Below are positions 204-57,190 of a DNA stretch of 64,000 nt, in pieces. This DNA comes from a virus: positions 1 to 64,000 of the IMG/VR virus record IMGVR_UViG_3300021405_000007. One strand, written 5' to 3'. Position 1 is the first letter of the stretch. Every line of letters starts with the position of its first letter. The position numbers and the translations under genes are program-made. The notes below the pieces were generated by a model. That model ran no database searches. It had not been told where the DNA came from and was given only the letters and a program-made list of their open reading frames with translations.

Positions 204-800
204 TTGATGCATTTTCTAGAATTAGAATTTAAACATAAAGCAAAGGGGATCTCTCTTAGAGATTTCAAAAAAGCTTTAAGTAATCTCATGAAAACTAGAA
301 AATTTGAAGTAATCACCGGAAAAAGTCCTGATTTTTATTATTCTAAGAGATTTTCAGCAGAAGAGTTTTATAGATATAGGGCAGGAGATAACCCAGAACT
401 CACAAAAAAAATAAAGTTACGAAAAAAAAATAACTGGGTTAGAATAGAAGTAGATCTACCTTTAGATGAAAAAAGGATTTCAAAAGAAATAGTAGAAAGT
501 CTAATGAATATAGAAGGTTATAAGTTCAATTTCTCTATAATAAAAACCTTTCATGTGATCAAGTTTAAAGAAGTTAACTATGTTTTTTACACAGTATATG
601 GGCCAAAAAACAATAAACTTGGCGCGTTTATAGAGGTAGAAATCAATAAAGAAAAAATTAAAGGTAAATTGAGTAGAGGTAAGCTTTTGAAGAAATATAT
701 GAAAATTCTAAATAAATCTGAAAAAGTCCTAAATTCTTTGAATTTGAATGAATCAACTAGACTCAATGAATCCATTTTCGAAATGTACAGGAAGTTTTAA
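204..800 (+). CDS. CYTH-domain (triphosphate tunnel metalloenzyme / class IV adenylate cyclase-like) protein
   Basis: N-terminal ExExK motif (LELEFK), DxYY, RxR..ELTxK, late FIEVE motif. Confidence 0.7.
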   Translation: MMHFLELEFKHKAKGISLRDFKKALSNLMKTRKFEVITGKSPDFYYSKRFSAEEFYRYRAGDNPELTKKIKLRKKNNWVRIEVDLPLDEKRISKEIVESLMNIEGYKFNFSIIKTFHVIKFKEVNYVFYTVYGPKNNKLGAFIEVEINKEKIKGKLSRGKLLKKYMKILNKSEKVLNSLNLNESTRLNESIFEMYRKF

Positions 801-1083: not shown

Positions 1084-1175
1084 ATTGGAAAAACTCTTAA
1101 AGAGGTCGTTATTAGCGCAAATACCGAAAATTCATAAACTATTTTTAAATGAAGAAAAACAAAAAGGGAAAAATA

Positions 1176-2774
1176 ATGATAAAACGTAAAATTCTAAGCA
1201 AAGAAGAAATGAAGAAGCCAATTTTAGAAGGTTTTACTAAAATGGCTGATATAGTGGCTCAAACCCTTGGGCCAGGGGGACTACCAATCTTAATTCAACG
1301 CCAAGGTCAAATGCCAAATGGAGACCCCTTAGGCCCAATGATAACAAAAGACGGTGTAACTGTAGCTAATGAGTGTTATGACTCTAATGCTGAGGTAGAT
1401 GTAGTACTTCAAGCCATCAAAGATATATGTCGCAAGACCAACAGAATGGTTGGAGACGGCACAACTACAGCAATCGTTCTAGGTCACGCAATTCTTAAAG
1501 AAGCCCTTTTATTGATAGAAGCAAAGCATGCAAACCCACAAGTAGTGAGAAATCAATTAGAAGAAACCTTAAAAGAAGTCTCTAAAAAACTAGAAGAAAT
1601 GTCAATTCCATGCACCTCCATGGATATGGTGGAGCATGTGGCCTCTATATCAGCCAATGGTGATAAGGCTATAGGAAAACTCATTAGACAGGCTTTTGAA
1701 TCAGTCGGAGTAGAGGGGGTTGTAACAGTTGACGAAGGTACCGGCAAAGACCATACATTAGATATAGTAGCAGGTTATCAGTTTCAACGTGGTGCAGAAG
1801 CTCAAGAACGGTTTTTTAACGACTCTACTAATACCAAATTTGAAGCAGAAAATGCCTATATCCTACTTTATGATGGTAGACTAGAAGATCCTAAAGGAGT
1901 AGCGGATCTTCTAGATAAACTTCAAAAGAAATTAGGACAAACAATGCCACCTATAGTCCTAGTGGCTAATGATTTTACTCCCGATATAATTCAAACGCTT
2001 CTTATATGGAAGGCAGAACTTGGGTTAAGAGTTTGTGCGGTGAAAGGGCCACACACAACCACGGTGAGAACTCAGTTTTATGAGGATATGGCTGTTTTCT
2101 TGGGTGGTTATAGATTCGGCAATGGTAATAGAAACTTAGCTAGTGCTGAATTCGATGATTTAGGACTCACAGATAAAGTGGTAATCACCAAATATACAGC
2201 AACGCTTTATGGCGGCCAAGGAACTGAAGAAGCAGTTTTAGCTAGAATAGAACAACTTAAAGTTCAAAAAACTCAAGCAGAAAGTAGTTATGACGCCAGT
2301 ATTATAGCAGATAGAATTTCTTACTTAGGTGAGGGAATAGCCAAAATAGGGGTAGGGGGATTAACAGACTTAGAAATAAAAGAAGCTTATCACCGTATTG
2401 AAGATGCTGTTAATGCTGCTAAAGTAGCCATTGAAGGTGGTATCGTAGCTGGAGGAGGTTCGGCATTACTTAGAATTTCTAAAGGTCTAAATGAGGACAC
2501 TTTTGGGAATATGATTCTTAAAAAAGCTTTAAGGGCTCCTTTTCAACAAATATTGAAGAACTTAGGTGTTGATGAAACTTCTATAGCAGCGTATGCAGAA
2601 GGTTTTATCGATGAGCGTGGATTGGTCTATGACGGCACTAAAGGATTGATAGTGCCCGGAATAGAATCTGGAGTTATAGATCCGGTAAAGGTTACTAAAA
2701 CTGCTCTGTCAGCCGCCATATCAATAGCAGGATTGATGTGCACAGCTGGGGGAGCCATTATATTTCATGAATAA
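1176..2774 (+). CDS. groEL: chaperonin GroEL (phage-encoded)
   Basis: TLGPGG, ITKDGVTVA, GDGTTTA, ISANGD, IEDAVNA, GIVAGGG, GVIDPVKV motifs; no GGM tail; start 1176 (SD AAGGG) or 1149. Confidence 0.97.
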   Translation: MIKRKILSKEEMKKPILEGFTKMADIVAQTLGPGGLPILIQRQGQMPNGDPLGPMITKDGVTVANECYDSNAEVDVVLQAIKDICRKTNRMVGDGTTTAIVLGHAILKEALLLIEAKHANPQVVRNQLEETLKEVSKKLEEMSIPCTSMDMVEHVASISANGDKAIGKLIRQAFESVGVEGVVTVDEGTGKDHTLDIVAGYQFQRGAEAQERFFNDSTNTKFEAENAYILLYDGRLEDPKGVADLLDKLQKKLGQTMPPIVLVANDFTPDIIQTLLIWKAELGLRVCAVKGPHTTTVRTQFYEDMAVFLGGYRFGNGNRNLASAEFDDLGLTDKVVITKYTATLYGGQGTEEAVLARIEQLKVQKTQAESSYDASIIADRISYLGEGIAKIGVGGLTDLEIKEAYHRIEDAVNAAKVAIEGGIVAGGGSALLRISKGLNEDTFGNMILKKALRAPFQQILKNLGVDETSIAAYAEGFIDERGLVYDGTKGLIVPGIESGVIDPVKVTKTALSAAISIAGLMCTAGGAIIFHE

Positions 2775-29271: not shown

Positions 29272-30234
29272 ATGAAAAATCAATTCTTAACCACTGCTTT
29301 GATAGGTTTACTTTCTGGCCAAATTGGAGCAGCCCCTATTCCAGTGCCAGCAAACACCAAACATGTTGCTTCAACGGCTGAAGTCGCTAAACCTAAAAAA
29401 ACCTATAAAACTGATATTGTACTTACTGATTCAAATACTATAGTATTCAGAGACGTCTTCATGGAAAATACGGTCGCAGTAGCTACGGTGAAAGCAAGAG
29501 AATTTGATGCTAAATTACCCAAAGACGCTGTGATCTACTTGATCATCAATTCTCCGGGCGGGGATATCGATGCTGGCATTGAATTCATTGAAAATATGAA
29601 TTCTTTGAATCATAAAGTGGTTACTTTAACTCAATTTTCAGCCTCTATGGGTTTTCAAACAGTACAAGGAGTAAACGGAGAACGTTTGATTCTAGCCAAT
29701 GGAACACTTATGAGCCATAAAGCTAAAGGTGGATTCAGTGGGGAGTTTGGACCAAATGGCGGTCAAATGAACACTAGATTTGAATATTATCTTAAAAGAG
29801 TCAAACGCTTAGATGAAAGAGCGGTTCAACGCACCAATGGCAAAATGGACTTAAAACAATATGAAGAACTTATTCGGGATGAATACTGGTGTGATGGTCA
29901 AGATTGTGTGAATAAAGGCTTCGCAGATAAAGTTGTTACTGCTACTTGCGATGATTCTTTATCTGGAACCCAAAATCTAGCAGTATCATTACCTTTCATG
30001 GGCATGATGATTCAAGCAAAAGCAGAAGTGGCCAAATGCCCCTTGATTACAGGGCCTTTGGGAATCGAAGCCGGAATGAAATTTTACGTCGATGGCAAAG
30101 AATATACTTCTGATACATTTAATGACATTAAATCAGAAAAATTGAAACAATACATTCTTGCCGAGTTTGAAAAAGCTACTGATAAACTCTCTCAAATTGC
30201 TGCTGGAACTTACAGAAATGCCGAAAGATACTAA
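29272..30234 (+). CDS. ClpP-family protease with putative signal peptide
   Basis: INSPGG, SASMG, LMSH, RDEYW; hydrophobic N-terminus. Confidence 0.8.
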   Translation: MKNQFLTTALIGLLSGQIGAAPIPVPANTKHVASTAEVAKPKKTYKTDIVLTDSNTIVFRDVFMENTVAVATVKAREFDAKLPKDAVIYLIINSPGGDIDAGIEFIENMNSLNHKVVTLTQFSASMGFQTVQGVNGERLILANGTLMSHKAKGGFSGEFGPNGGQMNTRFEYYLKRVKRLDERAVQRTNGKMDLKQYEELIRDEYWCDGQDCVNKGFADKVVTATCDDSLSGTQNLAVSLPFMGMMIQAKAEVAKCPLITGPLGIEAGMKFYVDGKEYTSDTFNDIKSEKLKQYILAEFEKATDKLSQIAAGTYRNAERY

Positions 30235-35758: not shown

Positions 35759-36031
35759 ATGTACAAAATAACAGAAAAAGTATACAAGTCTGAAACAATT
35801 AAAAAATTCTTAAAAGAAACAAAGGATGATAAAACCATGCAAAACATAGACTTGGAAGTAGGAAGCTTGGAAACATTAGAAGTAGAAGAACTAAGGGATT
35901 TAGCAATCAGTCTCTTTCACAAGACTTTTGGGACTGGGAGATTAGACTGGGATGCTAGAACGTATCTTCATGAAATTAAAGAGTATTATTCTAGACAAGA
36001 TTTGATTGATTTTATTTACGCAGAAGGCTAA
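35759..36031 (+). CDS. hypothetical protein
   Basis: 90 aa ORF. Confidence 0.55.
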   Translation: MYKITEKVYKSETIKKFLKETKDDKTMQNIDLEVGSLETLEVEELRDLAISLFHKTFGTGRLDWDARTYLHEIKEYYSRQDLIDFIYAEG

Positions 36032-40182: not shown

Positions 40183-40287
40183 ATAAAATACTCCTTTTCA
40201 TAAATGCGTGCTATATGGTATAACTAAGTGATAACTCACTAGGAAACTACCTATAGAACATTAAAATTTGTGGAAAAGGAGAACCTC

Positions 40288-41529
40288 ATGCTGAGGGGGT
40301 TTTTACAAAAAATACAGCGCTTTCTTCTGGTTTTTGGCCCCGGCTTGATTGTGCTTGAATGCGATAACGATTTCGGCGCAGTTTCCACATATACCCAGCT
40401 TGGTGCTCAATATGGTACCAACTTTCTTTGGATTCTACTTCTTTTACTACCTATATGCTACCTTTGCCAAGAAATGGTTGTTAGGTTAGGAATAGCCACC
40501 GGTAAAGGTCACGCCGTTCTTATATATGAAAAATTTGGAAAATGGTGGGGAAGGTATTCTTTCGGAACTCTTCAAATAGTCAACTTCTTGACAGTATTGA
40601 CCGAATTTATAGGAATAAAACTAGCCTCGGAAACTCTAGGTTTTGACCCTAAACTAGCAGTAGGTCTTTTTGCTATATGTTTAATAGCTTTAGTATTGAG
40701 CGGGAGTTATTTTGTATGGGAAAAGCTCACTATTCTTTTATGTCTCGCAGATGGGGTTTGGTTTTACTTAAGCAGCGAAATAGGCCCTCCAACCCATGAG
40801 AGCATAACAAACTCTTTCATCCCAAGTATGCCAATTGGAGGGATAACCCTCCCCCTCATATTTCTTTTAATAGCTACTGTAGGGACAACTATAGCTCCAT
40901 GGCAATTATTTTTCCAACAAAGTTGTGTAATAGATAAGAACTTGAAAGCTTCTGATCTGAATCATGAAAGGCTTGATACATTTTTGGCTAGTATTTTCAC
41001 TATATTAGTAGCCGGAGCTATGGTTTGCGTAGGGGTCGTCCTTTTTAGCAAAGGAATAACCTACGTCGATCCAGCACAAATGGCCGAGGTTTTGAAACCT
41101 CTAGCAGGGGATTTTATAAAGAAGCTTATTTTAATCATGATTATAAATGCCTCTGTTCTCGGAGCGATGGCGGTAACCCTTTCTAGTTCTTGGGCTTATT
41201 CTGAAGTAGTAAATTCGGCATCGGGATTAGGTAAAAAAATAACTGAAGCACCCCAGTTTTACGGGATGTATATCTTTGGGGTTTTGCTCGCAGCAGGAAT
41301 AGTGCTAATCCCACAATTACCATTACAGCTGGTGACCATAAGCGTGCAAGTCTTAGCGGGATTACTATTGCCCCCAGCTTTAATATTTTTGCATTTACTA
41401 TTGAATGATGAAAAATTTGTTCCCAAAGAGTTTTTAAATAAACGGTGGAACAATATCGCTAATATAATCGTGATTGGTTTGATGATTGTTTTATCTTTAG
41501 CTTTAATAGCAATACCCTTTTTCTCTTAA
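40288..41529 (+). CDS. NRAMP-related Mg2+ transporter (NRMT-like, SLC11 family)
   Basis: GPGLI...DND.G.V.TY...GA.YG, QEM..RLG..TG, GTTIAPWQLFFQQS, ~11 TM; SD AAGGAG before ATG 40288. Confidence 0.9.
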   Translation: MLRGFLQKIQRFLLVFGPGLIVLECDNDFGAVSTYTQLGAQYGTNFLWILLLLLPICYLCQEMVVRLGIATGKGHAVLIYEKFGKWWGRYSFGTLQIVNFLTVLTEFIGIKLASETLGFDPKLAVGLFAICLIALVLSGSYFVWEKLTILLCLADGVWFYLSSEIGPPTHESITNSFIPSMPIGGITLPLIFLLIATVGTTIAPWQLFFQQSCVIDKNLKASDLNHERLDTFLASIFTILVAGAMVCVGVVLFSKGITYVDPAQMAEVLKPLAGDFIKKLILIMIINASVLGAMAVTLSSSWAYSEVVNSASGLGKKITEAPQFYGMYIFGVLLAAGIVLIPQLPLQLVTISVQVLAGLLLPPALIFLHLLLNDEKFVPKEFLNKRWNNIANIIVIGLMIVLSLALIAIPFFS

Positions 41530-45080: not shown

Positions 45081-45222
45081 GTTCTCCCCCGCCGAGTTCA
45101 ATGGGATCCAAACTAGGATCCCATACCCCTCCCTCTAGCAGTTTGAATACATGTTAAAATTTTGTAAGTTCTATAATAATAGACACTTATAATAATCTTT
45201 ACTTTCAGTGAGTTATATTTCT

Positions 45223-47231: not shown

Positions 47232-49943
47232 ATGTCAAAACCTTTTGATATTAATGAAGAAATTGATCAACTATCTGAAAAAATGGTTAAAGCTCAAAAA
47301 ATCACCTTTTTTGAGTTAGCTTCTGAATTAGGCCTGGAAGGTCTAAAAAAAGCAAGCTCTAAAATGTCAGAAGCACAACTCACTGCTTTTAAAGAAGAAT
47401 TACAAAAACATATACCAAAAAGTGTAACTAAATCTGATTCTACTCCTGATGGTATGAGTGAAGAAATGGCTGGAGTTTCAATGGCTCCTAGAGATGAAAA
47501 TGAAACTGAACAAAAAAAAGAAGAACGAGAAAAAGCCGCTAAAAGAGTCGAAGATGCCGAAGGTTTGAATAAAGATGAAAATGCTTTAGGAGAAATGCTA
47601 ATGGCCTCTGAAAAAGCTCCAATGAAAAAGTCTGAAGGTGCTAGAGGGGGACATGTGATAGGTCATACCAAGAGTGGTAAGCCTATATATGCTTCTGGTG
47701 ATGGCCAATCTTATTGGAAAACATTTAACTCAGATGAGCATTTGACAGCTGCTGCAATCCATGCTAAAGAAGCAGATAAATATAAAAAAAATGTTAATGA
47801 AATACGTGCAAAGTATAAAGAAAATGAAGCACCAATGAGTGATCAGGATCAACGTTTGCATAGTTATAATTGGAATAAATGGGATCACCATCACCATGAA
47901 GCTCAACAACATCAAGAAATAGGTCGGGTTTTAAGGGACAGAGAGGAGCGTAAGAAAAAAACTCTAGAAAAATCTAAAGGTGCTAGAGGAGGCCACGTAA
48001 TAGGGTACACCCAATCAGGCAAACCAATCTATGAAGCAGCTAATCACTCCAGCCATAAAGATTTTTCCAAAAAAGATCATGCTGATGCACTTCAAGCCCA
48101 CAAAGAATTAACTCCTACAGCCGGTAATCTTAAAGCTTTGATGGAAGCGAAATACCATGCTGAGCAACAAAAAACTCATTTAAATGCTATGGAAAACAAT
48201 AAAATGAAAAAAAGTGTAGTAGAAAAATCAATTATAAACAATACCATGAGTCTTGAGCCTTTTATCGAAACTGATAGAGGCGGTAAATTTGAAATGAATA
48301 TGGACGATATGAACCGTCAAGCATTGCTTGATGAACTTATTGCTATGGATGCAATGGCTTCAGAAGAGATGAGAGACGTACTGCACCAAGGCGGCCCCGA
48401 AATGTCAGAATCTTGGACTGGACAAACAATAGACGATCCACAACCCCATATGGACTATGAGTTGGGTGCGGAAGATCTTAAAACTCCAAAATCTGAAAAC
48501 AAAAATGATCAAATTGCTGATAAGATTATAGAATTAAACAAATTAGGCGAAATGTCTCACGAGGAAAGAATGGAAATGCGCGAAAAAATAATGATGATTC
48601 TTGAGGCTTTAATGGAGCGTCAACTAGAAAAAGCTGTTATTTCTAAAGCTCTTGACACTTTATCTGTGAAATTGAATCTACCAAATGGTAAATTGCATAC
48701 TCTTTACGACAAAGTAGTTGAATTGAAAAAGTCTGAAGGCGCCAGAGGTGGGAAAATTATAGGCCATACTAAATCGGGTAAACCTATTTACGAACATGCC
48801 GAACATAAAGGGCATGAAGGCTTTCATTATGAAGATCATTTCGATGCTATGAAAGTTCATCATAAATTGGCGCATTCCCATGAAGATAAAGCTAAAGGCA
48901 TGATTGCCGCTGATGGAATGAAAGACTTTAAAGAGCTGAAAGGTCACGCTGAAGGCATAAAACACCACCTCAATGAGGCTTCCAAACATGAAAAAATGTT
49001 CCGTAAAATGACGCCAGGCATTAAAAAAGCCCTAGATCCTTTTTATGATAACATCGAAACTAACGAAGATTTCTATAAATCTGATGCTTTAAATCCTTTC
49101 GAATATAGAAAGATTGGACAAAACTACCATGCAGATGTCGACGCTTATATTGAAGCAGAAGAAAAAGCAACAAAAGAAAATCTAGATAAATCAACTTTCT
49201 TTTACCCAGACCAAAAAGCTTTGACCAAGTCATCAGGCATCCAAGAGTTGATCGAAAAGGGCGCTCACATGGACGAGCTGGAGCTTGAAACTGCTTTAAT
49301 TAATAAAGGTATTTCTGCTACCTATCGTGGAGTTAACATAGTAAAATCATTCACAGACTCTTCTATGGAAGACCTTTTTGTACAACGAGATACTTGGGGT
49401 CAACCAATTAAAAAGTCATACGATGATATTCATCGCGAAGGTAGCGGTTCTGCAGAAGACCATGATGACGTAATGCATCAAGATGCCGGCGAAGCAATGG
49501 AAGAATCCGGAGAGCCGATCCGTAAAGATGAGTCAGAAGAGTCTGATGAAGAAAAGAAAAAAAGAGAAGAAGCTAAAGAAAAACTCATGGAGATGGAAGA
49601 ACGCGAACATGCAACCAAAGATCCAGAAGAGTTGATTGAAGCTGAAAAAGAAGAGCATATGGAAAAAGCTGAAGATGACCACAAAGAAAGCGACAATTGT
49701 GAAGATGTTGACTTGGAAAAATGTGGTGGCTATGATATGCTTTCTAAAGAGTTAGATGATATGAAAGAAGATGCTAAAGATGAAGAGATTGAAAAAGCCT
49801 ATATCGGCTTTAAAAAACTTGAAAGCAAAATAGCTCATCGTGGTGGAGTTAAAAACCCAGCTGCAGTCGCCGCTTCGATAGGTAGAAAAAAGTATGGAAA
49901 ACAAGGATTTGCAAAATTAAGTGCTGCAGGACGTCGTAAGTAG
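47232..49943 (+). CDS. putative internal head polyprotein with three His-rich repeat modules
   Basis: 3x KS.GARGG..IG.T.SGKPIY; about 20 [LIMVF]xK[SAGD] sites. Confidence 0.65.
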   Translation: MSKPFDINEEIDQLSEKMVKAQKITFFELASELGLEGLKKASSKMSEAQLTAFKEELQKHIPKSVTKSDSTPDGMSEEMAGVSMAPRDENETEQKKEEREKAAKRVEDAEGLNKDENALGEMLMASEKAPMKKSEGARGGHVIGHTKSGKPIYASGDGQSYWKTFNSDEHLTAAAIHAKEADKYKKNVNEIRAKYKENEAPMSDQDQRLHSYNWNKWDHHHHEAQQHQEIGRVLRDREERKKKTLEKSKGARGGHVIGYTQSGKPIYEAANHSSHKDFSKKDHADALQAHKELTPTAGNLKALMEAKYHAEQQKTHLNAMENNKMKKSVVEKSIINNTMSLEPFIETDRGGKFEMNMDDMNRQALLDELIAMDAMASEEMRDVLHQGGPEMSESWTGQTIDDPQPHMDYELGAEDLKTPKSENKNDQIADKIIELNKLGEMSHEERMEMREKIMMILEALMERQLEKAVISKALDTLSVKLNLPNGKLHTLYDKVVELKKSEGARGGKIIGHTKSGKPIYEHAEHKGHEGFHYEDHFDAMKVHHKLAHSHEDKAKGMIAADGMKDFKELKGHAEGIKHHLNEASKHEKMFRKMTPGIKKALDPFYDNIETNEDFYKSDALNPFEYRKIGQNYHADVDAYIEAEEKATKENLDKSTFFYPDQKALTKSSGIQELIEKGAHMDELELETALINKGISATYRGVNIVKSFTDSSMEDLFVQRDTWGQPIKKSYDDIHREGSGSAEDHDDVMHQDAGEAMEESGEPIRKDESEESDEEKKKREEAKEKLMEMEEREHATKDPEELIEAEKEEHMEKAEDDHKESDNCEDVDLEKCGGYDMLSKELDDMKEDAKDEEIEKAYIGFKKLESKIAHRGGVKNPAAVAASIGRKKYGKQGFAKLSAAGRRK

Positions 49944-50378: not shown

Positions 50379-51185
50379 ATGACGTCCATTAAAAAGGGTT
50401 GGAATGTAGAAGTAGCTAAACCTACAAAACGTCAATCCACTCTCCCTAAAGTAAATTTAAAAAAAGAACAATTTGACCAACTTATACTTGACCAAGGTGT
50501 AAATGTAAGAGTCTTTAGAACAGTTCCATGCCCTAATGTTAAGTCTATTGAAGCTGGGGAGCATGAGATTGATTGTCCACTTTGCCGTGGTTCTCAATTC
50601 GTGGATCGATACCCATTAGAAACTAGAGTTGTGATTCAATCCGTACAAACAGAAGTAGCTCACTTAGTTGAAGGTCTTTACGACGGTAATACGGTCACTA
50701 TTACCCTCCCAAGCGGTGTAGAATGCCAATATTACACCATGATTGAATTAGTTAACTATACCGAAATTTATATTGAACGTGTGTCCCGGCAATTAGGACA
50801 AGTAGATGTTCTAAAATTCCCAGCTACTAGGGTCAATTTGTTAATTGATCAACACGGCAAGGAATACCTTGAAGGTGCAGACTTTAGCGTAGATCTTAAC
50901 AGCAATATAAAATGGGGAACTAATAGAGGCCCGGTAGAAGGCACTATTTACTCAATTCATTATGAAACCAAAGTACGGTACCGTACTGTACGGGCACTGC
51001 ACACCAATCGTTATGGCAATATAACCGAAAACGGTGTGGATGATATGACTAAGATGGCGGAATCATGGTTAGGCTTCAAAATTTTCTTAGTTGACAGAAA
51101 AGATCAACTGGGCAATCTAGTTAGGAGTAATAAACTCCCACTTCATGAGATTTCTGATGATTCCGATTATTACACTACAACTTAA
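50379..51185 (+). CDS. head closure/neck protein
   Basis: F..LI...G, CP....CPLCRG, SIHY. Confidence 0.7.
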   Translation: MTSIKKGWNVEVAKPTKRQSTLPKVNLKKEQFDQLILDQGVNVRVFRTVPCPNVKSIEAGEHEIDCPLCRGSQFVDRYPLETRVVIQSVQTEVAHLVEGLYDGNTVTITLPSGVECQYYTMIELVNYTEIYIERVSRQLGQVDVLKFPATRVNLLIDQHGKEYLEGADFSVDLNSNIKWGTNRGPVEGTIYSIHYETKVRYRTVRALHTNRYGNITENGVDDMTKMAESWLGFKIFLVDRKDQLGNLVRSNKLPLHEISDDSDYYTTT

Positions 51186-51355
51186 ATAGTGGATTCTAAG
51201 TCTTCTACTTCTAATATTTCAAAAGATCCGACTGCATAACCCTCGATTACTAGGTGCCTAGCCTCTTTATCTACTTCTCTTCTTGTTGAGAAGATTCCTG
51301 AGTGGATCGCATCTTCCATGGATTCATCCTTGAATTTAATTACGTATTTTTTCAT
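51182..51355 (-). CDS. small hypothetical protein (57 aa, not in ORF track)
   Basis: SD AAGGAG; MKKYVIKFKDESMEDAIHSG... Confidence 0.65.
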   Translation of the reverse strand: MKKYVIKFKDESMEDAIHSGIFSTRREVDKEARHLVIEGYAVGSFEILEVEDLESTI

Positions 51356-51419: not shown

Positions 51420-51587
51420 CTAATAATTTTCAGTTTCTAGAAAGTCTTCATCATCAAAGTCTTCTTCTAATAGATCATCTGATTCTTTATCTTCGTGAAA
51501 TCCACCATCTTCGTATTCTTTTTCTAAGTTTCCAAAGGCTAACTCATTCATTTCTTTACTTAATTTTATCATTTCTTCTATTCTCAT
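51420..51587 (-). CDS. small highly acidic protein (55 aa, not in ORF track)
   Basis: SD AAGGAG; MRIEEMIKLSKEMNELAFGNLEKEYEDGGFHEDKESDDLLEEDFDDEDFLETENY. Confidence 0.7.
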   Translation of the reverse strand: MRIEEMIKLSKEMNELAFGNLEKEYEDGGFHEDKESDDLLEEDFDDEDFLETENY

Positions 51588-51624: not shown

Positions 51625-51651
51625 TCTTCGGTAGATTTTTAAAAAACTTTA
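51625..51651 (-). promoter_or_regulatory. sigma-28-type promoter
   Basis: TAAAGTTT-N11-ACCGAAGA on the minus strand, upstream of the acidic ORF. Confidence 0.7.
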
Positions 51652-51659
51652 GAAAAAAG

Positions 51660-51688
51660 TTGCATCTTTTGACAATAATCAGTAAACT
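51660..51688 (+). promoter_or_regulatory. sigma-70-type promoter for the sigma factor gene
   Basis: TTGCAT-N17-TAAACT. Confidence 0.5.
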
Positions 51689-51785
51689 ATAATTAACTCA
51701 TTGAGGGTAGTATAGCTAACTCTTCAAGATTCTTACCAAATTTGGTAAAATAATTAAAAAATTTTTATTAAATTTGGATTCAATC

Positions 51786-52976
51786 ATGCAAGATGACTTA
51801 GATATCGTCAACGAGAATGATATTCTTGTTATAGAGACGATAGTTTACAATGACAACTCTTCTTACGCTGAAGACAATTCTTCACCTTCCCTTAAAACCT
51901 ATATAAGACAACTATCTAAATTTCCACTTCTTACCCGAGAACAAGAACTTTCGCTCACGAGAAACCTCAAAAAGAACCGTGAGATCCTTTATTCAGCCTT
52001 TATGAAAACCCCAGAATGTCGTCTAGAACTTATGCAAATGCTCAACGCTAAGGTAGGTAGAGCTCGTAGAATGTTTGATCATATAGCAGAAGCTACCGAT
52101 GACGATGAGAAGGTTCTGAATCTTCAAGAAGAGCTAGCCAATGCCATAAAAGATAATAACTTCTCCAAGAAAAATCACAAGAATTTTCAGAACTTAGTTA
52201 TCCCTTTTAATGATTTTTATAGACTAGTTAATATTCTAAAAGCAAAAGAACTCACTCCTGAAGTCTCTAAAGCCCTCAATGAATACAACCAAATGAAGAA
52301 AAGGTTGTCAGAGTGTAATCTTCGTTTAGTCTTCGCTAGGGCTAAGAGATTTATGAATAGAGGCATGTCTTTAGAGGATCTTATCCAAGAGGGTAACGTG
52401 GGATTACTTAAGGCAATTGAGAAGTATAATCCAGAAAAAGGAAACAAATTCAGCACTTATGCTACTTGGTGGATTGATCAAGCTTTTGGCCGCGCTTTAG
52501 TGGACAAAAGTAAACTTGTACGTATCCCTGTACATATGGTTGATTCCATCAATAAAGTCAATAAAGCTTTTCAGACTCTTTCTGAGACTCTGACACATGA
52601 ACCTAGCAATGAAGAAATAGCAAAACTTACGGGACTAACTCTAGAGAAAGTTCGAAAAGTCAGAAACTCCATTATTCTAAAAGCTAAGTACCTTCAAGAA
52701 TTTCAAAATGATAAAGCTCTTCCTAAAATTATGGATTTTCCCGACGAGTCTAAAAATCCCGAAGAGCAACTCGAAGAGAAAGAATTAAGTGTTAAAGTAC
52801 GGGAATTTTTAGCAACTCTTTCGCCGCAAGAAGAAAAGATTTTAAGACTCAGGTTCGGAATTGGTGAAGCGAGAAGCTATGAAGTACAAGAAATAGCGAA
52901 CACTGTAAAATTAACACGTCAAAGAGTTTCTCAAATTCTCAATAAGACTAAGAAATTATGGGAATTTAAGGTATAA
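51786..52976 (+). CDS. RpoD-like sigma-70 family sigma factor
   Basis: region 1.2 (Y.RQ....PLLTREQE), NLRLV..AK, DLIQEGNVGLLKAIEKY, KFSTYATWWI, RIPVHM, LRFG, TRQRVSQI. Confidence 0.95.
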   Translation: MQDDLDIVNENDILVIETIVYNDNSSYAEDNSSPSLKTYIRQLSKFPLLTREQELSLTRNLKKNREILYSAFMKTPECRLELMQMLNAKVGRARRMFDHIAEATDDDEKVLNLQEELANAIKDNNFSKKNHKNFQNLVIPFNDFYRLVNILKAKELTPEVSKALNEYNQMKKRLSECNLRLVFARAKRFMNRGMSLEDLIQEGNVGLLKAIEKYNPEKGNKFSTYATWWIDQAFGRALVDKSKLVRIPVHMVDSINKVNKAFQTLSETLTHEPSNEEIAKLTGLTLEKVRKVRNSIILKAKYLQEFQNDKALPKIMDFPDESKNPEEQLEEKELSVKVREFLATLSPQEEKILRLRFGIGEARSYEVQEIANTVKLTRQRVSQILNKTKKLWEFKV

Positions 52977-52982
52977 TTTAGA

Positions 52983-53747
52983 ATGGCCTCGAATGAAATT
53001 ACATTCAAAATTAGTGATGAAATCAAGAAGTTAGGTCAAGACTTAGAAGCCTTAGCACCTAGAATTCGTGATGAGCTAAATGGCATTGTTGGAGATTTAG
53101 CAAAAGCTACCTACAATCAAATAGTGGCAAAAGCTCAAATGGAGCTTCATAGCACCAGATTAGACTACCTTAGAGGTTTACAATTTCAACAAGTTGGCCC
53201 TAATGACTATATGATAAGTTTGGATGGTTTTTTTGCTAATTCATTAGAAGATGGTCGGCCACCTTATTCTTTGAATGAGGCGCTGCTCAAGTCAGCCAAA
53301 GAGGTAAGCACGGGTAGTAGAGCGGGTGAACCTTGGGTTCGAAAGAACAAACAAGGGAAGCGTTATGCGGCTGTACCATTTGAACAGTCTCAAATGAGAG
53401 TAGAAATGGGTTTGCCTACTTTGAGAGTTACAAACCCTTTTACCGATAAAAAACAAAAGATAAATCAACTATTTAAAGATTTTGATAAAAATATAATTCA
53501 AGGAAAAGTAGGTAGTTTTAACATCCCTAGTGCACCTAACGAACTGCAAGGATTGACTAAATACCAACACACAAATAAAGAAACCGGCAAAACTAGAAGT
53601 ACTTACGTGACTTTTAGAATGATCAGTGAAAATGGTAAACAATGGACTCACCCCGGTTTTTCTGGACTTCATGCTTTCGAAGAAGCCATGAAAATGGTAG
53701 ACGTCCAATTTGAAAAAATGCTAAATGAATTATTTGATAAAATATAA
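52983..53747 (+). CDS. neck/tail completion protein
   Basis: L.STR..Y, LE.G, Y.TFR.IS....W.HPG. Confidence 0.7.
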   Translation: MASNEITFKISDEIKKLGQDLEALAPRIRDELNGIVGDLAKATYNQIVAKAQMELHSTRLDYLRGLQFQQVGPNDYMISLDGFFANSLEDGRPPYSLNEALLKSAKEVSTGSRAGEPWVRKNKQGKRYAAVPFEQSQMRVEMGLPTLRVTNPFTDKKQKINQLFKDFDKNIIQGKVGSFNIPSAPNELQGLTKYQHTNKETGKTRSTYVTFRMISENGKQWTHPGFSGLHAFEEAMKMVDVQFEKMLNELFDKI

Positions 53748-53756
53748 GGTATTGAT

Positions 53757-54710
53757 ATGGCAATGATAATTCCAGAAATTATTTTACAAAGTATTATCGA
53801 TGATGGTTTTACTGATATCAGAAATAACCCTGATACTTTTAGTGATGTTTTCGGTAGTTTAACTCGCGGTTTTGCAACAAGAAGATATGGTAATTCTGAA
53901 ATTGCAAAAATTACCAAAATGGTACAAAATACTCAAATTCCAGTAGTTTTTAGCTACGGAATAGTTGAAGCGAATATCCCCTGTATAAGTATCCTTATTA
54001 ATTCAGATTTAGAAGATACTAATCGGTCTGGTATGTCTGACCATCTTGGATTCGCTGATATACCTTTTATAGACCCTTCTCAGTTAGCTGCTTTAGTCTA
54101 TGCTGGCCCTTTTCAACCCACTTCCTATAATCCTTTATCCGGTCAAATTGTCATCCCAGACTCAGTAGATTTATCTCAGGTTTATGCCAACCTTTTGTTC
54201 GTAGATAGCACCGGTACCGAATTCCCAATCTTAGGAGGTATTTCTGACACTGTTGGGAGTAAGCAGATCGTAATAGCCAAACAAGCTACTGTTAGCCTTA
54301 ATCCCGGAGCGGTCATAAAATCTTCAATAGACTTTAGTCGAGTTGAAGTTAAAGCCAACACTGAGAATGTTTCTCTAATGGTGGGAGTGCACAGCAAAGA
54401 CCCTTTAACCACTAAGTGGTTGTATACACTAGTAAAATACTTTCTTCTTTCTAGAAAAGAATCTTTAATTAAACGTGATTTCAATTTAGCTACTTATTCA
54501 GGTTCAGATTTTGCTAGGGACATGAATTACTCTGGAGATGCCGTTTTTACAAGATTTTTAACTGTTTCCGGCGTCATTCAGAATCAATGGAATTCTGAAA
54601 ACATCGATCTATTTGATAATGTTGAGATTAATCTACAAATTCCAAAAGATGTTTATGATAGCCAACAATTAGGAATAGAAGCCGACGAAACTATAAAAAC
54701 AATTCTATAA
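53757..54710 (+). CDS. putative tail terminator/completion protein
   Basis: position before the sheath; LY..VKY.LL, FTR.L.V. Confidence 0.55.
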   Translation: MAMIIPEIILQSIIDDGFTDIRNNPDTFSDVFGSLTRGFATRRYGNSEIAKITKMVQNTQIPVVFSYGIVEANIPCISILINSDLEDTNRSGMSDHLGFADIPFIDPSQLAALVYAGPFQPTSYNPLSGQIVIPDSVDLSQVYANLLFVDSTGTEFPILGGISDTVGSKQIVIAKQATVSLNPGAVIKSSIDFSRVEVKANTENVSLMVGVHSKDPLTTKWLYTLVKYFLLSRKESLIKRDFNLATYSGSDFARDMNYSGDAVFTRFLTVSGVIQNQWNSENIDLFDNVEINLQIPKDVYDSQQLGIEADETIKTIL

Positions 54711-54779
54711 GACACGGGCATGATATAATTATTATGTTCTTGTCCCATATTATGTTAATAAATCCAAGAGATTGAATTA

Positions 54780-55025
54780 ATGGGAAAGAAATTGAAAAAA
54801 ATAAATCTAGATTCAAATGTTCTGGAATCTGAAGCGGTTGAGATTGTTCCTCAAATGATCAAAGTCTCTCCAATGATGACTTTTGAAGCTTGGTTCCAGA
54901 AAAAGGTTAAAGAAGGCAAACTTCAGGAATGGCAAACAAAAGCTGTGAGCATTTTCTTTAAGAAGCGAGGCTTAAAGGAAATAGAGTCTGAAGATCAATT
55001 CGATGAAATTTTCAAAATTTTTTAG
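54780..55025 (+). CDS. small hypothetical protein
   Basis: 81 aa ORF immediately upstream of the sheath. Confidence 0.55.
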   Translation: MGKKLKKINLDSNVLESEAVEIVPQMIKVSPMMTFEAWFQKKVKEGKLQEWQTKAVSIFFKKRGLKEIESEDQFDEIFKIF

Positions 55026-55042
55026 ATTAAGGTATCAACAAA

Positions 55043-57190
55043 ATGGCTATTAAAACAAATTTCGGTGGAAGCACTATTTATCATCCAGGTGCTTATTCAA
55101 AATCGATCACCAACCCAACTCCCGGCTCTAATGTTGTATCAACCGATACCCTATTTCTTATTGGTGAGGCCTCTGGTGGCCAACCAGGTTCAAGCGCTGG
55201 TATAGTGTTTTACCCAGCTTCAGCTGCTTCCCAAATTCAATCTATTTATCAATCCGGCCCTATTGTAGACGCAATCATGAATTGTTTAGCTCCCCTGAAA
55301 CTATCAGGCGGTGGTGGTCCGGGTTTAATTGGTATATATAAAACCAACGCATCTGTGCAAGCATCTCTATCATTAGCTAGTTCTTACGCTACCTTAAAAG
55401 CTTTAGATTACGGCGTAAATGGAAACAGGATCACTGCTAAAATTATTGTTTCTGCAGAAGTATCTCCAGCAGTAACTGGTTCAGCAGCAGTAACTAACTT
55501 TGGTGGTTTAAACACTGAAACTTTAGTAATTAGAACAAATGGTGCAGCTTCAGTCACAGTTACATTCTCTTCTCCTGCAAGTATTGCTGATGTGATTTCT
55601 CAAATCAATTCTCAAGACACCCAAGTAACAGCGAGTCAAGTTGGTGGAATTCTTACGATTACCAAAAATACATCGGCTAATCATAATAGGGATGGTTTTG
55701 GTTCTACTATTGAAATTGTTAGCGGTTCTGCCTTAGGCCTTTTGTTTCTAACAGCTGGTCAATTTGGAGTAGCCGCTTCAGAACAAACCGCAACCGTAAC
55801 CTTAGCAAGTTCTGCTATTAATGTAACTGAAACTGATGTAGAAGGCGGAGCAATCGCTCTATCTATCGGTAGAACTAATGCTAGTTCTTGTACAGCTGCA
55901 ACAGTTCAAGTCAGTTCAACTAGTTTGGTGCTTACCGCAACGGGTTCAACTTCTTATAACTTTACCTTAAGCCAATACCCTTTAATTAAAGATTTAGTAG
56001 CAGCTATTAATAACGTAGCTGGAGGTTGGTCTGTAACTGCTAATGCAACCTTACAAAGTCTACCGTCATCAGCACTTGATGAAATGACCATTGGAGCATT
56101 TTCTGAAGCTGGTAACCAACCTGCTAGGATTAAAATTGATGCTTATTCAATGTCTCACGCTTTTGATTCATCCCAATTAGTTTCTATTGCCATGACTGCA
56201 GTAGCTGGTTTACCAGACCAACTTTCTCCTGCTGCTAGTTTAGCTGGTGGATTGTTGGGTGCAAGCGCTTCTTCTGACTTCGAAAATGCTTTAACTTTAT
56301 CTTTATCCGAAGACGTAAATGTTATCGTTCCTTTAATTAGCCAAGATGCTTCGGCTGACATCAGTATGGGTGTAACTGACTCTAGTTCTACTTACGATGT
56401 AGAAGCTGTTCAAGCAGCCCTTTCTTCTAACTTGGCATTACGCGGCAATATTAAAAATCGTCGCGAAGCTCAAGGGGTTGTAGGATACAGAGTTAATACT
56501 GCAGCTGCTATGTATGCCCAAGCAGCTTTGTTAGCCGATTCCAATACTCAATTAGTTGGACAGGATGTTTTAGTAGTAGATTCAACTGGTAATCTAAATT
56601 ATAAACAACCACACATCTTAGCTGCAATGATTGCAGGTGCTCGTTTAGGTGTTGATATCGGTGAACCTTTAACTTACAAATTCATTGCAGTTTCAGCAGT
56701 GGGTCATTTTGTTAATCCATCTACTGGTGTTTCTGGTGGTGATTTCAACCCAGTAATCGATGGTGATGCAGCTATCCAAGCCGGGGTTACTTATTTGGAA
56801 CCAGCTCAAGGAGCTTTCCGAATAGCAGTAGACAATACTACTTACGGTGCAGATGCTAATTTTGTTTACAATCGTGGTTCAGTGGTACAAGCTGCTCAAT
56901 ACATTGCTAAAACGATCCGTAATGATGCTGAACTTACTTTCGTAGGTAAGAAAACTTCAATCGTTGATGCTAATGCCATTAAATCAAGAATTTCAACAAT
57001 ATTACGTCAATTATTAGTAGCTCAAATTATAGTCCCTTCAACTGGTTATCCTTTGGGTTATAATACTGACACTTTTACCGTACAAGTTGTTGGAAACACA
57101 GCTAGCGTTCAACTCGAAGTATTCCCAGTACTTGGCCTCGACTTTGTGCTGATTACTTTTACGTTATCGGAAGCTACTTCTAACGCTTAA
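55043..57190 (+). CDS. tail sheath protein
   Basis: F.G..IY.PG.YS, IGEA.GG.P, GEPLTYK, D.TTY, FVGKK. Confidence 0.92.
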   Translation: MAIKTNFGGSTIYHPGAYSKSITNPTPGSNVVSTDTLFLIGEASGGQPGSSAGIVFYPASAASQIQSIYQSGPIVDAIMNCLAPLKLSGGGGPGLIGIYKTNASVQASLSLASSYATLKALDYGVNGNRITAKIIVSAEVSPAVTGSAAVTNFGGLNTETLVIRTNGAASVTVTFSSPASIADVISQINSQDTQVTASQVGGILTITKNTSANHNRDGFGSTIEIVSGSALGLLFLTAGQFGVAASEQTATVTLASSAINVTETDVEGGAIALSIGRTNASSCTAATVQVSSTSLVLTATGSTSYNFTLSQYPLIKDLVAAINNVAGGWSVTANATLQSLPSSALDEMTIGAFSEAGNQPARIKIDAYSMSHAFDSSQLVSIAMTAVAGLPDQLSPAASLAGGLLGASASSDFENALTLSLSEDVNVIVPLISQDASADISMGVTDSSSTYDVEAVQAALSSNLALRGNIKNRREAQGVVGYRVNTAAAMYAQAALLADSNTQLVGQDVLVVDSTGNLNYKQPHILAAMIAGARLGVDIGEPLTYKFIAVSAVGHFVNPSTGVSGGDFNPVIDGDAAIQAGVTYLEPAQGAFRIAVDNTTYGADANFVYNRGSVVQAAQYIAKTIRNDAELTFVGKKTSIVDANAIKSRISTILRQLLVAQIIVPSTGYPLGYNTDTFTVQVVGNTASVQLEVFPVLGLDFVLITFTLSEATSNA

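Follow-up and report, generated by a model that had tools for sequence, protein, structure and literature searches.

Phages such as SPO1 (gp28, gp33/34) and T4 (gp55) redirect the host core RNA polymerase to their later promoters by means of short and highly divergent sigma factors, and their late or middle promoters are unlike TGnTATAAT. The middle and late promoters of Thermus phage P23-45 lack a -35 element and carry an extended -10 element. There, a small protein, gp39, modifies the host sigma-A holoenzyme (PMC3950348). Complete RpoD-like sigma factors have been described in group 2 jumbo phages, where they are regarded as secondary acquisitions that recruit the host polymerase (PMC7824862), and such sigmas are also annotated in phage records, namely rpoD of Microcystis phage MaAM05 and sigma-70 of Vibrio phage 2.275.O. 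Here, we analyzed 64,000 nucleotides of viral DNA (the window, bases 1-64000 of the 108,106-bp IMG/VR record IMGVR_UViG_3300021405_000007, the full record being referred to as G000), in which a gene for a near full-length, RpoD-like sigma factor lies within the module of morphogenesis genes, back to back with a sigma-28-like promoter. An earlier interpretation of this locus, made from the letters of the DNA and hereafter called the sequence-only reading, had assumed that phage sigmas are usually small and divergent, which the jumbo phage, cyanophage and vibriophage examples show to be incomplete.

The reading that we favor, with moderate confidence, is that a promoter bearing a -35 element, probably recognized by the host sigma-70, would give rise to the phage sigma factor, that this sigma would then drive a class of extended -10 promoters, and that a host FliA would read a separate class located ahead of accessory cassettes. 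As in SPO1 and T4, the proposed role is thus to redirect the host core to later phage promoters, though the sigmas of those phages are short and highly divergent and we saw no sequence relationship between them and the present one. The gp39 system of P23-45 likewise switches to the phage's own genes through promoter-class specificity, but the present phage carries its own sigma. There is also a likeness to the sigmas of jumbo phages, cyanophages and vibriophages, which are phage-encoded, near full length, RpoD-like and thought to recruit the host core polymerase; unlike the jumbo phage genes, however, the present clade occurs in phages of ~100-120 kb and at a fixed position by neck and sheath genes, and the named sigmas of MaAM05 and 2.275.O fall outside this clade and lack its D/E-G signature (described below).

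A conserved RpoD-like sigma factor in the morphogenesis module

The sigma gene and the domains of its product were located as follows:

51786..52976, plus strand: sigma factor gene, 396 amino acids from an ATG start (P0002; open reading frame list and translation, with an identical protein on record)
51774..52976, plus strand: the same gene from an alternative TTG start at 51774, 400 amino acids (P0001)
51888..51968, plus strand: region 1.2 (Pfam PF00140, Sigma70_r1_2, E 2.4e-5)
52311..52511, plus strand: region 2, core binding and -10 recognition (PF04542, E 9.7e-21), containing WWIDQAFGR
52548..52667, plus strand: region 3 (PF04539, E 1.8e-11)
52809..52946, plus strand: region 4 (PF04545, E 1.5e-10), with the recognition helix TRQRVSQ (TRERIRQ in E. 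coli)

The open reading frame, the Pfam domains and a match to PHROG 351 (phage RNA polymerase sigma factor, E 4.9e-63) bear out the earlier description of a sigma of ~396 amino acids with regions 1.2, 2, 3 and 4, and the presence of regions 2 and 4 places it in the sigma-70 family; the P0002 protein is also present on a 202,512-bp contig. Pfam gave no match to region 1.1 (PF03979), and since region 1.2 begins at about residue 35, leaving only ~34 residues ahead of it, the protein lacks region 1.1. Among the NCBIfam models, RpoD-type models scored best (240 bits), followed by RpoS (206), FliA (110) and RpoH (92), all of them under the curated cut-offs (240 vs 555 bits for NF004208 and 220 vs 354 for TIGR02393, both RpoD equivalogs; 206 vs 378.7 for RpoS, TIGR02394; 110 vs 189.6 for FliA/WhiG, TIGR02479). 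The best matches of solved structure (PDB) were RpoD/SigA proteins, with E of ~1e-52, while identity to E. coli FliA was 25%, with an unlike region 2.4.

Alignment to E. coli RpoD (BLASTP) revealed that region 2.3, KFSTYATWWI, is identical in the two proteins, and that four DNA-reading positions have changed: R436 to D, T440 to G, E585 to Q and R588 to S, the phage residue aligned with R436 being D231 (codon 52476-52478). Phage H250 and D253 align with E. coli H455, which is kept, and E458, which has changed to D; these two E. coli residues are the ones that read the extended -10 element. The "housekeeping-type motifs" noted earlier are therefore there in region 2.3 and in the core-binding region, but not at the DNA-reading residues. 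The core-binding residues are invariant throughout the clade of related phage sigmas, which, together with the identity of region 2.3 to that of E. coli, argues that the sigma is functional. Thus, the protein shares with cellular RpoD/SigA the regions 1.2, 2, 3 and 4, a region 2.3 that is unchanged and an insert of non-conserved sequence that separates region 1.2 from region 2, and it differs from them in lacking region 1.1, in carrying D, G, Q and S at the DNA-reading positions, in its score of 240 vs 555 bits and in its location in a phage structural module. It is best explained as a complete sigma derived from a primary RpoD by loss of region 1.1, and is predicted to be functional.

MzaA, the sigma of the MZA defence system, was considered and rejected as an identity for this protein. 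It gave the best NCBIfam and PADLOC alignment, running over the insert and regions 2-4, but it reached only 242 bits against a cut-off of 800, matched only with its own C-terminal half and concerned a gene located in a phage, with no Mza partner genes nearby. PADLOC found no match among five neighbors of the sigma gene (the two small open reading frames described below, the upstream virion protein and the 254- and 317-amino acid proteins).

About 25 proteins of ~400 amino acids, from contigs of up to 120 kb, were 32-57% identical to the phage sigma over nearly its full length. In a maximum-likelihood tree, 21 phage sigmas and P0024, a match from a 121-kb contig that had beforehand been grouped with the cellular sequences, formed one clade (SH-aLRT 99). 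The clade was nested in a cluster (SH-aLRT 92) in which E. coli RpoD was joined by further cellular sigmas, and the E. coli factors RpoS, RpoH and FliA lay outside that cluster, together with the sigmas annotated in Microcystis phage MaAM05, Vibrio phage 2.275.O and Synechococcus phage S-N03, in what is a quick tree with weak deep forks. The comparison with RpoD, RpoS and RpoH that had been proposed as a check thus places the clade among primary sigmas, as it shares with E. coli RpoD a cluster that leaves out RpoS, RpoH and FliA, and both the scores and the tree support the view that the phage encodes a primary-like, RpoD-derived sigma.

The clade is marked by the signature WWI(D/E)Q..(G/S)R, as opposed to WWIRQAITR in cellular sigmas. 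In a profile search of 1.8 billion proteins, which yielded 144 best representatives with a readable motif, D or E occupied the R436 position in 19, all of them among the top-scoring proteins of ~400-500 amino acids and all with G or S at the T440 position, while 103 of the remaining representatives, mostly longer ones, had R and T at the two positions. In region 4.2, most clade members keep RERxRQ, but the motif has degenerated in this phage and in the two relatives nearest to it (TRQRVSQ, SKQRVSK and SKQRVAR). Profile scans for the locus that used one of the alignments (A2) picked up ordinary RpoD genes.

The sigma gene has the following neighbors:

50379..51185, plus strand: virion structural protein, upstream neighbor (PHROG 1004, E 1.4e-18)
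52983..57190, plus strand: downstream block of a 254-, a 317- and an 81-amino acid protein and the tail sheath (PHROGs 16819, 1000 and 279; synteny)

Five related IMG/VR phages share one gene order, consisting of the virion protein, the sigma, the 254-, 317- and 81-amino acid proteins and the sheath, and homologues of the virion protein that are 45-51% identical lie upstream of sigma in each of the loci L002-L005 and L010. The downstream block has extended -10 sites of its own at 53735 and 54721; a sequence search with the proteins downstream of sigma found no relative of solved structure. Judging by this gene order, the sigma gene is a conserved resident of its position and not a recent insert. 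The earlier description of a gene "inserted among neck genes" holds insofar as the gene has the virion protein on one side and the sheath block on the other, but no flanking gene carries a neck annotation, and the gene is a resident. What is new here is a distinct and conserved clade, in which region 2.4 bears a fixed pair of substitutions and the gene occupies a constant position within the morphogenesis module of phages of ~100-120 kb, together with a clean -35-less promoter motif; some of the members also have a sigma-28-type promoter class.

Two promoter classes and the promoters of the sigma gene

All 8-mers were ranked by their enrichment in sense-strand upstream intergenic DNA, using no prior motif. 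In G000, the leading words were TGTTAAAA (7 of its 16 genome copies lie upstream, 15-fold), TTAAAATT, GTTAAAAT and TAAAGTTT (7/27, 9-fold), which make up two promoter-like families, both far above chance genome-wide. The first is the extended -10 family TGnTAwAAT, with 38 copies in G000 compared to 10 for the reversed control, about 15 of which are found 14-55 nucleotides ahead of genes, mostly morphogenesis genes. Upon alignment, these sites carried information only at TGnTAAAATT, and no -35 signal was detected near them in any of the three genomes aligned. In each of the five sigma-bearing phages tested, the motif showed a strand bias and outnumbered its reversed control. In G003, a complete sister genome of 118,948 bp, the top de novo word was GATATAAT (10/14 copies upstream, 29-fold), which leads the ranking together with TGATATAA; in G002, another related phage, these two words come second. 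In both genomes the motif likewise precedes large structural genes with no -35 element. The sites of this class in G000, and the elements ahead of the sigma gene, are:

23006, 31521, 44152, 45152, 47204, 53735, 54721, 80552, 87874 and 92591: extended -10 sites before morphogenesis genes, those at 45152, 80552 and 87874 being of the form TGTTAAAAT
51743..51751, plus strand: extended -10 TGGTAAAAT, 34 nucleotides before the sigma ATG, a member of the TGnTAwAAT family
51660..51688, plus strand: weak bipartite promoter candidate, TTGCAT-N17-TAAACT
51736..51777, plus strand: 15-bp inverted repeat (51736-51750 / 51763-51777; RNA fold -21.1 kcal/mol, z -2.76)

The extended -10 element that had been reported before the sigma gene is thus confirmed, and since it belongs to the late class, self-activation of the sigma gene, suggested earlier, is plausible. 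The "sigma-70-type promoter" came down to the weak bipartite candidate: a generic two-hexamer scan around the sigma gene performed at chance level (18 found vs 15.7 expected), and the TTGACA at 51669 and TATAAT at 51688 do not form a promoter pair, as they are only 13 nucleotides apart, which is too close. Ahead of the relatives' sigma genes we found TTGACA-17-TAGTAT (L002), TTGACA-17-TAAGGT (L003) and TTGCAA-17-TAAAAT (L010). The putative bipartite promoter of the sigma gene is of another class than the late promoters. The inverted repeat encloses the extended -10 element and ends just ahead of a weak ribosome site, and the hairpin is predicted to form in transcripts started upstream, not in those started at the extended -10 element. 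Translation of sigma could thereby depend on the promoter used.

The second family has the consensus TAAAGTTT-N11-GCCGATAA, the second element being (G/A)CCGA(T/A)A. We counted 13 such sites in G000 compared to 4.8 in shuffles; 8-10 of them are intergenic and correctly oriented, and most are located 30-60 nucleotides before a start codon, mostly ahead of small open reading frames that belong to no family and have no homologue in relatives. They are like FliA/SigD flagellar promoters in sequence, spacing and placement, and unlike the promoters of flagellar regulons they occur in a phage genome, ahead of small accessory genes; in the literature searched, we found no report of a sigma-28-type promoter class in a phage. 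Judging by its consensus, this class is most likely read by a FliA-type sigma of the host. The divergent sigma-28 promoter of the sequence-only reading is there, and leads to a minus-strand cassette:

51651 to 51625, minus strand: sigma-28-like promoter TAAAGTTT-N11-ACCGAAGA, directed away from the sigma gene, 38 nucleotides before a 55-amino acid open reading frame
51420..51587, minus strand: that 55-amino acid open reading frame (P0122), the first gene behind the site, with an AAAGGAG ribosome site; very acidic (22 D/E) with an acidic tail
51182..51355, minus strand: 57-amino acid open reading frame (P0123), the second gene of the cassette

Neither P0122 nor P0123 had a match in Pfam, PHROG or PADLOC, or a homologue in the relatives. 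From its composition, P0122 might be a DNA mimic or a protein that binds the polymerase or sigma.

The distribution of the two classes differs among the relatives. G002 has 26 sigma-28-like sites (5 in shuffles). A relaxed scan of G003 found 2, compared to 4.2 in shuffles, and the exact pattern was matched neither there nor in G004, a partial genome, although both have the sigma in the same place and extended -10 promoters. Hence, the sigma is maintained where the sigma-28-like class is lacking, and the two promoter classes do not form an obligatory paired switch. Since the sites mostly precede open reading frames that are not conserved in close relatives, they look like accessory cassettes and not like the main early programme. 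Of the proposed switch from sigma-28 to sigma-70, then, the existence of two distinct promoter classes stands and their obligatory pairing does not; the observation itself is largely real, and a switch is broadly plausible if taken as a cascade.

Another site of this class lies at 36029, and two further genes stand behind sigma-28-like sites. Homologues of a basic 198-amino acid protein (window 204-800, plus strand), encoded behind the site at 114, occur in G003 and G004; their genes, at the loci L004 (6719-7339, minus strand) and L005 (6869-7489, minus strand), are on the other strand and occupy the space that separates the virion protein gene from sigma. Cassettes of opposite orientation seem to accumulate in this slot ahead of sigma. 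A 148-amino acid open reading frame (G000 68683-69129, minus strand; L020:4683-5129), downstream of the site at 69344 to 69318, begins with a lipoprotein-type signal (MYKFLLLTLFIVSCG) and would fit a surface-modifying accessory gene.

The genome and its other genes

The modules of G000 follow one another in this order:

1-20 kb: GroEL, exonuclease, primase-helicase, DNA polymerase and SbcC (PHROG)
21-35 kb: terminase, portal, protease and major head protein (PHROG)
35-42 kb: small open reading frames of no known function
44-57 kb: adaptor-like and virion proteins, the sigma gene and the tail sheath (PHROG)
65-74 kb, minus strand: block that includes ribonucleotide reductase (PHROG)
74-95 kb: baseplate and tail proteins (PHROG)
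95-108 kb: small open reading frames

CheckV estimated the completeness of G000 at 93%. Its listing gives a linear molecule that lacks end repeats, but we found that the final 126 nucleotides of the record (107981-108106) are a copy of positions 3-128, because of which G000 is probably complete; the genome is probably circularly permuted or terminally redundant. The end of this terminal repeat falls within the sigma-28-like site at 114-141. The capsid protein is 28-30% identical to the capsids of SPO1-like Bacillus and Listeria phages and of some Bacteroides phages, and none of the cultured phages was close to G000 in a DNA-level search. The phage is best explained as a member of an uncultured, myovirus-like lineage of roughly 100-120 kb, distantly related to the Herelleviridae. 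In an attempt to assign a host, the lists of GroEL homologues led to a phage-specific clade and those of Nramp homologues to a mix of phyla, and no host taxon was obtained from cluster names and the ESM Atlas. A search for tRNA genes in G000 found none, and an Rfam search of the window, L003 and L022 gave no match.

The GroEL chaperonin (window 1149-2774, plus strand) falls into a large clade specific to phages, with members on many contigs of 100-125 kb, which suggests a widespread group of uncultured phages. Among the genes common to G000 and G002 and missing in G003, none of which is sigma-like and several of which belong to no recognized family, are an Nramp-family metal transporter (window 40270-41529, plus strand; Pfam E 7.7e-64), a BT1-family (folate/biopterin) transporter (G000 101176-102558, minus strand; L021:17176-18558; E 2.3e-28) and a dUTPase (G000 99268-99687, minus strand); membrane transporters seem to be uncommon as phage cargo. 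A 903-amino acid protein (window 47232-49943, plus strand) matches its relatives in short repeated segments (38-114 amino acids, 37-79% identity) and not end to end. There are two ClpP/prohead-protease-like genes (PHROG 94), one at window 29272-30234 and another at G000 97261-97881 (L021:13261-13881), both on the plus strand, the latter located outside the head module and having its own TGTTAAAAT site at 97200.

Assigning sigma factors to promoter classes

According to the reading that we favor, a host sigma-70-type holoenzyme would transcribe the sigma gene early in infection, from the promoter that has a -35 element. By way of its unchanged region 2.1-2.2 and its region 4, the new sigma would bind the RNA polymerase core of the host and would steer it to the TGnTAwAAT(T) promoters, which lack a -35 element and stand before the genes for head, neck, sheath, baseplate and fibers. 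The extended -10 element before the sigma gene of this phage would add positive feedback. The sigma-28-like promoters, one of them back to back with the sigma gene, would form a separate class, read by a FliA-type sigma of the host and serving mainly strain-specific accessory cassettes. Recognition of an extended -10 element alone fits the lineage-specific changes at the residues reading -12/-13 and the degenerate -35-reading helix.

Several points weigh against this reading. The extended -10 motif is also found before ribonucleotide reductase (71313, minus strand) and before the ClpP-like protease at 97200. TGnTATAAT is also a good promoter for an ordinary host sigma-70/SigA, as for ordinary primary sigmas in general, so that the late class may be read by the host sigma without any help. 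Moreover, covariation of the DNA-reading residues with promoter sequence could not be demonstrated, as the three aligned genomes lack a -35 signal whether their region 4.2 is canonical or not. A less probable account is that the host sigma-70 reads the extended -10 class and that the phage sigma is an auxiliary, primary-like sigma. It would keep transcription going when the host's own sigma is in short supply, is sequestered or has been inactivated by the phage, or it would act on host genes as well, which comes close to the "growth-type programme" of the sequence-only reading. Such an account gains from the generic nature of the extended -10 consensus among primary sigmas, from the unchanged region 2.3, from the presence of the motif before some non-structural genes and from the fact that RpoD-like sigmas of other phages are usually taken to be acquired host-like genes (PMC7824862). 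It sits poorly, however, with the changes at the -12/-13-reading residues, which are fixed clade-wide and suggest a specificity unlike the host's, with the constancy of the gene's place among the morphogenesis genes over a divergence of the clade's sigmas to ~35% identity, and with the promoter of the sigma gene itself, which in the relatives is of another class.

The roles could also be reversed, with the phage sigma reading the sigma-28-like promoters and the host sigma-70 the extended -10 class. A caution in this regard is that QRVSQ in region 4.2 resembles SRVSQ of E. coli FliA, matching it at 4/5 positions, including the Ser in place of R588, and a sigma-28-like site adjoins the sigma gene both here and in L003. 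But the -35-reading helices of G000 (TRQRVSQ) and G002 (TRENVRQ) differ while the TAAAGTTT element is identical in the two phages, the latter having 26 such sites, which argues that the phage sigma does not read it; G003 and G004 keep the sigma and have no such sites, and region 2.3-2.4 is RpoD-like and unlike that of FliA. Furthermore, if the A of CCGA is taken as -11, the sites have no T at -7, which primary-type sigmas need. We therefore regard this reversal as the least probable of the accounts. It is only slightly less doubtful that the sigma-28-like sites are read by an unrecognized phage factor and not by a host FliA, or serve in another role, such as binding sites. Several of the genes that G000 and G002 share to the exclusion of G003 would leave room for such a factor, being of no recognized family; yet we found neither a second sigma-like gene (PF04542, PF08281) nor a FlgM-like anti-sigma in G000, and the bipartite consensus, the spacer of 11-12 nucleotides, the orientation and the distance of 30-60 nucleotides to start codons closely fit FliA/SigD.

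If the accessory cassettes are indeed read by a host FliA, as in the reading that we favor, then phage gene expression would be tied to the motility state of the host, an arrangement of which we found no description in the literature searched. A more elaborate version, which we put forward as speculative and on balance unlikely, is a two-sigma programme tied to host motility, in which the cassettes would run on the host sigma-28, after which a phage RpoD, retuned at the residues that read -12/-13, would seize the core polymerase on behalf of late promoters independent of a -35 element and would boost its own synthesis. The accessory, and possibly early, cassettes would then fire only in motile cells, for example in cells just infected through a rotating flagellum or in a predator in its attack phase. 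Phage sigmas are a classic means of host takeover, and those that have been studied are short and divergent, whereas the present one is a near-complete RpoD derivative with few, clade-fixed changes at its DNA-reading residues, accompanied by a conserved promoter motif in several complete genomes. Since it is clear which residues could be exchanged and which promoters assayed, this clade offers a tractable natural case for studying how the specificity of a primary sigma is retuned.

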